In this document: positions 1,176-1,441 of the stretch, in pieces | How positions within the stretch are numbered: the stretch's first letter is position 1 | Layout: each line of letters begins with the position of its first letter | DNA from: Escherichia coli | Lineage (GTDB): Bacteria; Pseudomonadota; Gammaproteobacteria; Enterobacterales; Enterobacteriaceae | Length of the DNA: 64,000 nucleotides | Strand: one strand, 5' to 3' | Assembly: GCF_009931435.1 (NCBI RefSeq) | Contig: NZ_CP043414.1 | The notes under the pieces: model-generated | Database searches by the model: none | Told to the model about the DNA's origin: nothing | Seen by the model: the letters and a program-made list of their open reading frames with translations, nothing else | Translations under genes and position numbers: made by a program

Positions 1176-1441
1176 GATTGCCTGATGCGACGCATGCGCG
1201 TCCTGTCATGCCTCCGGGCATTGCGCATATGCGCATCTGGCGATTTCCGTCGCTTACCCTAAATCCGCCATCAACACCTTTGATTTGATGTAGGTCGGAT
1301 AAGGCGTTCACGCCGCATCCGACGATGAGCGTCAATACCTGATGCGATGCTAGCGTGTTTATCATGCCTCCAGGCATTGCGCATGTCGCATCTGGCGATT
1401 TCCACCACTTACCCCAAATCCGCCATCAACACTTTGGATTT
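1176..1441. repeat. BIME/REP cluster: two ~105-bp direct repeats (1181-1285 and 1338-1441, ~85% identical) flanking a REP palindrome (about 1286-1337)
   Basis: Direct comparison of the two copies in the sequence; second copy overlaps the last ~30 nt of argA. Confidence 0.5.

Follow-up and report, generated by a model that had tools for sequence, protein, structure and literature searches.

Recombination between REP sequences reportedly produced the kilobase-scale duplications, with a REP at the join point, that Shyamala, Schneider and Ames described in 1990. In BIME-2 arrays the z2 and y REPs are inversely oriented, and the copy number of BIMEs varies among strains (PMC3333891). The transposase TnpA(REP) cuts single-stranded DNA at C/T sites, some located in the iREPs and linkers and others at a distance from the REP; the cleavage sites taken from that work for comparison are TGCC/TGAT in iREP I, CC/TAC in iREP II and C/T in the linker, the slash here and below marking the cut (PMC3333891). 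Such distant cutting could let a BIME unit sequester fragments of flanking genes, codA-cynR being an example (Ton-Hoang et al. 2012, PMC3333891).

Here we consider the spacer between recD and argA in a stretch of 64,000 nucleotides of Escherichia coli DNA, which is referred to below as the window. This spacer is probably occupied by an atypical BIME-2 array that originated in an old illegitimate join and was then shaped by changes of copy number and by gene conversion.

Structure of the recD–argA spacer

The window begins inside recD; argA is on the minus strand, with the stop codon at 1409–1411, and extends to about 2740. The two genes are convergent (3'-to-3'), and the spacer between them is 237 bp long. 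The repeat search yielded three pairs of direct repeats with offsets of 155–157 nt, namely, 1232–1286/1387–1441 (55 nt, 89% identity), 1206–1228/1362–1384 (23 nt, 96%) and 1168–1201/1325–1358 (34 nt, 74%), and a palindrome, 1294–1307/1310–1323, situated between the repeat copies. When 1168–1286 is globally aligned with 1325–1441, 98 of the 119 columns are identical (82.4%) and there are two one-base gaps. The right-hand 84 nt, including the argA end, show 86.9% identity, and the left-hand 38 nt, 68.4%. On the minus strand, both copies read as the same argA end, ten residues followed by a stop codon.

The earlier note had reported a duplicated unit of ~105 bp that includes the 3' end of argA and recurs ~155 bp further on at ~85% identity, with a REP-like palindrome between the copies. 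The duplication is real. The score of the global alignment is 75, far beyond that of 500 shuffles (−13.3 ± 5.2, maximum 3), so that the similarity is well above chance, the point on which the note was prepared to be refuted. Its figures are essentially right, only the unit is slightly longer, 117–119 nt; the palindrome is the y-type REP at 1290–1323. What had been overlooked is that both copies also hold a truncated y REP, and that in the left third the similarity is that of z2 REPs at the family level. To judge from the alignment, this third would be an older likeness of two members of the z2 family, with no recent copying involved, and the recently shared part would comprise the z2 tail, the y remnant, the spacer and the argA end.

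Table 1. Parts of the recD–argA spacer and of the adjoining gene ends in the window. The boundaries were read against related alleles, and the coordinates were checked.
Feature	Position	Strand	Basis	Remarks
recD stop codon TAA	1169–1171	+	RefSeq annotation of the identical allele	z2 REP begins 8 nt downstream
z2-type REP, copy 1, GCCTGATGCGACGC...TCATGCCTCC	1180–1215	+	iREP orientation; naRNA4 alignment	Tail degenerate, CTCC in place of CTAC; ortholog in E. whittamii: the z2 that opens the array
Truncated y REP, remnant 1, head half only (...GCGCATCTGGC)	1216–1241	+	Comparison with E. whittamii and L008, where the y REP beside argA is full	Complementary to the z2 head
12-nt spacer, copy 1, GATTTCCGTCGC	1242–1253	+	Match to the spacer between REP and argA stop	
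argA 3'-end pseudo-copy, stop and last 10 codons	1254–1286	-	Alignment to the real end	Reads AAA TCA AAG GTG TTG ATG GCG GAT TTA GGG TAA; 3 differences from the real argA end
3-nt junction GAT, pseudo-copy to y REP	1287–1289		Allele comparison	
Full y-type REP, GTAGGTCGGATAAGGCGTTCACGCCGCATCCGAC	1290–1323	+	Repeat search, naRNA4, fold	5' GTAG on the plus strand
Head-to-head linker, 13 nt, GATGAGCGTCAAT	1324–1336	+	Type seen in the E. whittamii array	
z2-type REP, copy 2, ACCTGATGCGATGC...TCATGCCTCC	1337–1371	+	naRNA4 alignment; comparison with E. whittamii and E. albertii	GCGATGC, as in internal z2 units of both E. whittamii and E. albertii
Truncated y REP, remnant 2	1372–1396	+	Alignment, allele comparison	
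12-nt spacer, copy 2, GATTTCCACCAC	1397–1408	+	Position between REP remnant and argA stop	
Real argA stop and last 10 codons	1409–1441	-	RefSeq annotation, cross-species conservation	Functional copy of the 33 nt

The segment 1293–1368, formed by the y REP, the linker and the z2 REP, matches the whole Rfam model RF02564 (naRNA4), which represents the REP325 BIME-2 unit, with 54.6 bits (E = 3e-9), just under the gathering score of 59.5 bits. Orthologous y–linker–z2 units reach 59–75 bits: 75 in the second two-copy allele of E. coli (L088), 72–73 in E. whittamii (L010) and 70 in E. albertii (L089). The y REP is an imperfect palindrome of ~34 nt with a terminal GTAG and a bulge in the stem; it aligns to the first naRNA4 hairpin with all pairs formed, and folds as a hairpin on both strands. 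A z2 REP is expected to be a GCCTGATGCGACGC...GCGTCTTATCAGGCCTAC-like palindrome with a terminal CTAC. The two candidate z2 segments align to the second naRNA4 hairpin, their tails being CATGCCTCC rather than CAGGCCTAC and several pairs being broken in copy 2, and on this alignment they appear to be recognisable but decayed z2 units.

The array is composed of inversely oriented z2 and y REPs, and its copy number varies: 1.75 units in the window, one in most E. coli, three in an E. albertii contig and three canonical ones in E. whittamii. The linkers are not uniformly short, as the head-to-head one is 13 nt, whereas the tail-to-tail position takes 74 nt and contains a gene fragment; therefore we file the array as an atypical BIME derived from BIME-2. 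The term "BIME-like mosaic", used earlier, proved to be correct, given the naRNA4 match and the canonical array at the same site in E. whittamii. The window array can accordingly be described, as far as sequence comparison goes, as an atypical BIME-2 with a long "linker" that would hold a captured fragment of argA. Outside this locus, only 1279/1289–1369 of the window finds matches in E. coli genomes, at 81–89% identity; the remnant, the spacer and the argA-like parts are confined to this locus in the E. coli genomes searched.

Several neighbouring features are worth mentioning. The bases immediately following the recD stop (AACGTGATTGCC, 1171–1182 compared with 1326–1339) resemble the head-to-head linker of a BIME, and an Rfam alignment of 1158–1212 to naRNA4 (31 bits) omits the first hairpin; an old linker or y remnant may underlie the recD stop region itself. 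An open reading frame of 111 amino acids, 1042–1377 on the minus strand, extends over the recD end and the cluster of REPs; RefSeq lists no such gene in the identical allele, and the frame is almost certainly spurious. Divergently from argA, an ORF with a twin-arginine-like signal (2956–4224, plus strand) looks, by position and sequence, like the amidase AmiC. Further along the window there are three tandem tRNA genes (9792–10085, minus strand) with a spacing of 110 nt and identical Rfam scores, and two small RNAs expected for the chromosomal region, GcvB (14409–14614, minus strand, 199 bits) and CsrB (37709–38068, plus strand, 380 bits).

Alleles of the spacer in E. coli and related species

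Most E. coli genomes have one copy. The spacer is 61 bp long in K-12 MG1655, BL21, SF-468 and KOr021, and 81 bp long in K-15KW01; over all alleles, the lengths of 61, 81, 95, 234 and 237 bp were met, as well as a three-copy form. Two-copy alleles, in two diverged versions, are present in 130 of the 5426 complete E. coli genomes (2.4%), counted by coverage of at least 80% of a junction-spanning query, 1236–1400; both types fall within this count in a local megablast check. Over 551 nt, E. coli 2013C-4282 has exactly the sequence of the window allele (100% identity). Since there is this exact match and the comparison of strains, suggested in the earlier note, finds the same architecture in 130 complete genomes, the structure is not an artefact of assembly.

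The second version (L088), found in strain 2014C-4587 and at least 33 other genomes, has a spacer of 234 bp. Its architecture is the same as in the window, and the two alleles are 87% identical, but its pseudo-copy has 1-nt deletions that break the frame. The window allele is an old, segregating length variant. Searches with the E. whittamii array and with both junction queries found no intermediate allele, that is, a two-unit array without the pseudo-copy.

In the 61-bp spacer of K-12 (L004:423–483, L007), a z2 head and a y head are fused, forming a perfect 12-bp palindrome, GCCGGATGCGAC/GTCGCATCCGGC. The MG1655 record has no REP annotated in the recD–argA spacer, which is by its composition a collapsed BIME.

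The genes recD and argA are convergent neighbours in all 79 species representatives with argA in the fetched stretch (80 species were fetched, and in one of them argA is outside the stretch). The spacers are usually 15–60 bp long. In E. whittamii Sa2BVA5 (L010:2098–2389), a canonical BIME-2 array, (z2-l-y-s)x3, fills a spacer of 286 bp; its full y REP abuts the same 12-nt spacer followed by the argA stop, and two of its y-s-z2 units exceed the naRNA4 gathering threshold. The first z2 of this array has GCGACGC, and the internal ones, GCGATGC, which is the same difference as that between copies 1 and 2 in the window. The record L008, titled E. coli, has one z2-l-y unit. The 81-bp form is seen also in the type strain of E. 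albertii and in Escherichia sp. MOD1-EC7003. In some Citrobacter spp. (L025:2089–2277, L031:2089–2353), the same spacer contains tandem arrays of a different REP type (GTAGGCCGGATAAGCGTTAGCGCCATCCGGC...). It seems that this site has received REP arrays repeatedly, in more than one genus.

The scan of metagenome contigs for an argA-like end followed by a y REP yielded one contig. By its flanks it belongs to E. albertii, recD being 99.8% and argA 97.5% identical to those of the type strain. The argA end is present in it three times, twice as a pseudo-copy with a full y REP behind it and lastly as the real end (TRF period 139 x 2.5). The two pseudo-copies have a common 7-nt deletion, and therefore the composite unit was amplified again after the decay.

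Origin of the composite unit

The C-terminus of ArgA, SKVLMADL(G/T/A/S) followed by the stop, is retained in about 80 enterobacterial species, none of which has it duplicated. Therefore the end is native to argA, and it was the repeat that copied argA. The earlier note had left two possibilities, that the repeat made use of the argA 3' sequence or that argA captured its C-terminus from the repeat. The former stands, as the array unit holds a non-functional argA end; the latter is contradicted by the conservation of the last nine residues in species without the duplication, and we give it next to no credence. Its sole support is that the repeat overlaps coding sequence. Examination of 87 loci revealed a duplicated argA end in L001 alone, the E. 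coli genome with the window's own allele, and pseudo-copies decay by indels (1 nt in L088, 7 nt in E. albertii), whereas the real end stays intact. Hence the argA-like piece is a non-functional duplicate of the authentic end of argA. The fact that its differences from the real end are synonymous third-position ones (3/3) was considered as proof that the pseudo-copy had evolved as a coding sequence; the frame-breaking deletions in L088 weaken this argument, which survives only within the fossil reading considered below, to which we give little weight.

The repeating unit may be read as a z2 REP, a truncated y REP, the 12-nt spacer, the last 33 nt of argA, 3 nt, a full y REP and a linker, and 1.75 such composite units are found in the window. 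The starting point would be an ancestral BIME-2 array at the recD–argA site, as in E. whittamii. A single illegitimate event, joining argA at 33 nt within the gene (position −33) to a y REP tail, would have brought the argA sequence into the array; homology-driven loss or exchange between z2 units would also be needed. After that, the composite unit could expand and contract by homology between units, like any BIME-2 unit, its copies being partly homogenised via gene conversion. The pseudo-copies of the three multi-copy alleles have a common end point in argA, after which come 3 nt and GTAGG. Moreover, the pseudo-copies of the window and E. albertii have CACCTTTGATTT where the real gene has CACTTTGGATTT. 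Given the common end point and the common CACCTTTGATTT, a single origin is the economical reading. The parallel between the first and internal z2 units of E. whittamii and the two window copies supports a history in which the array came first. Outside the first 11 alignment columns, three variable sites group the two copies of one allele (W1 and W2) against the two of the other (E1 and E2), and none group the copies by position; these three to four sites suggest gene conversion between copies.

The join could have come from template switching in replication or from the REP-associated transposase TnpA(REP)/RAYT, and we regard the two sources as equally possible. Inspection of the sequence reveals sites of the iREP I type at both z2 heads, 1182/1183 and 1339/1340, and a GACC/TACA site at the y tail on the minus strand. 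No C/T is seen by the same inspection at the argA/y junction, TTT-GAT-GTAGG, and a C/T joint made by TnpA(REP) is not visible at this point. A join at CTAC microhomology between argA (AAC TAC CAG) and the y REP tail was rejected, as it predicts 6 nt between TAC and AAATC, while 3 nt are present, with no similarity. The junction trinucleotide itself is wholly different in the three alleles: the window has GAT, the second E. coli allele has TCC, and in the E. albertii contig it is TTC. Involvement of TnpA(REP) in the capture of argA is a possibility.

Simple tandem duplication cannot produce the observed order of elements. Because recD coding sequence borders the array on the left and argA on the right, neither of the candidate units, [z2...argA'-x-y-s] or [x-y-s-z2...argA'], is present twice in full, and therefore at least two steps have to be assumed; TRF finds no tandem array in the window. 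In one two-step history, ~117 nt of a one-copy 81-bp allele (z2, remnant, spacer and argA end) were simply duplicated in tandem, and a single y REP was later inserted at the duplication junction in an independent event. The 81-bp one-copy allele does exist in E. coli, E. albertii and Escherichia sp., and ATAAACGTGATTGCC, which precedes z2 copy 1, matches ATGAGCGTCAATACC before z2 copy 2 at 10/15 positions. Nevertheless, we consider this history rather unlikely. Of the 17 nt upstream of the C/T site of z2 copy 2, 14 agree with the E. whittamii head-to-head linker and only 10 with the recD end, this copy has the GCGATGC of the internal z2 units of canonical arrays, and the whole y–linker–z2 segment scores as one BIME-2 unit; besides, REP mobilisation of the IS200/IS605 type has no known targeting to duplication junctions (PMC2817692).

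It is also very improbable that a y-z2 REP doublet, similar to a REPIN, was inserted in the 3' region of argA and created a target-site duplication of ~80 nt. A canonical BIME-2 unit (about 1290–1371) is indeed flanked by direct repeats, 1206–1286 and 1362–1441, but the repeat overlaps the z2 tail itself, and repeats of ~80–117 nt that overlap a REP differ from the short repeats of fixed length left by transposons. To our knowledge, no transposase makes staggered cuts of 80 nt. Also, the chemistry of the IS200/IS605 family and RAYT involves no target duplication (PMC3333891, PMC2817692).

The pseudo-copies of the window and E. albertii have AAA TCA AAG GTG, whereas all sampled Escherichia argA genes have AAA TCC AAA GTG; argA of Salmonella and C. 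koseri has TCA AAG. It is conceivable, although we lean against it, that the pseudo-copy is a molecular fossil of the ancestral codons, or a natural in vivo footprint of TnpA(REP) sequestering flanking DNA. If ancestral codons have been kept, the capture would predate the common ancestor of E. coli, E. albertii and E. whittamii, and the multi-copy allele would be a trans-species polymorphism, older than the split of E. coli and E. albertii, that has been kept or exchanged for millions of years.

Function and relation to known systems

REPs near stop codons reportedly cause ribosome stalling, a finding attributed to Liang et al. in 2015. Gyrase and DNA polymerase I are reported to be bound by REPs and BIME-2 arrays, which are also said to assist in Rho-dependent termination (PMC2817692). 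In the recD–argA spacer, the pseudo-copy itself probably does nothing, and the REP hairpins would serve as ordinary 3'-end structures for both convergent transcripts. On either strand, the RNA of the spacer has a more stable predicted fold than shuffled sequences do (z = −3.2 and −4.8). Scans for terminators and promoters found no site resembling a Rho-independent terminator or a promoter in the spacer.

We see little chance that the extra unit has been selected for, either as altering the 3'-end processing, stability or translation of the argA and recD transcripts or as a source of a naRNA-like nucleoid-associated RNA. On the one hand, there is the fold excess on both strands, the REP structures start 8 nt past the recD stop and 12 nt past the argA stop, and the multi-copy form persists in two species. 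On the other hand, such a fold excess is expected of any REP cluster, the extra unit is missing from 97.6% of complete E. coli genomes, indels accumulate in the pseudo-copies, and the window unit is below the naRNA4 gathering score, in addition to the absence of terminator- or promoter-like sites in the scans of the spacer.

The array explains a length polymorphism of 156 bp at the recD–argA locus, and its value is mainly in annotation and mechanism; knowledge of the function of argA, recD or REPs is unchanged. For K-12, the comparison shows that a spacer without REP annotation is a collapsed BIME. More generally, this is a clean natural example of a BIME unit with a gene fragment that is still changing its copy number. 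Such cases are the only in vivo traces of REP array growth, which so far has been modelled only from the in vitro chemistry of TnpA(REP).

The kilobase-scale duplications of Shyamala, Schneider and Ames share with the window array a REP at the join point; unlike them, the window unit is about 156 nt long, and one side of its join is in unique coding sequence. The K-12 spacer has the same location, z2-head and y-head sequences and the 12-nt spacer before the argA stop, but, unlike the window, retains only the two REP heads fused in the palindrome. The BIME-2 and atypical BIME arrays of E. coli, such as REP325, the source of naRNA4, are similar in having inverse z2 and y REPs and the canonical head-to-head y–linker–z2 arrangement, in their location between convergent genes and in copy number varying by strain (PMC3333891). 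The window array differs from the usual BIME-2 in that its tail-to-tail position is occupied by 74 nt (the truncated y REP, the spacer, 33 nt of argA and 3 nt) instead of about 10 nt, and in that every second y REP is truncated. A further parallel is the codA-cynR type (Ton-Hoang et al. 2012, PMC3333891), set side by side with the window from its description, where a fragment of the neighbouring gene is also part of the amplified BIME unit; the window junction shows no C/T signature. Thus, this is a real but ordinary, lineage-restricted feature, a length variation of a known kind and not a new system: both the copy-number polymorphism of BIMEs and the capture of flanking fragments have already been described, and the recD–argA locus is a new example of them.
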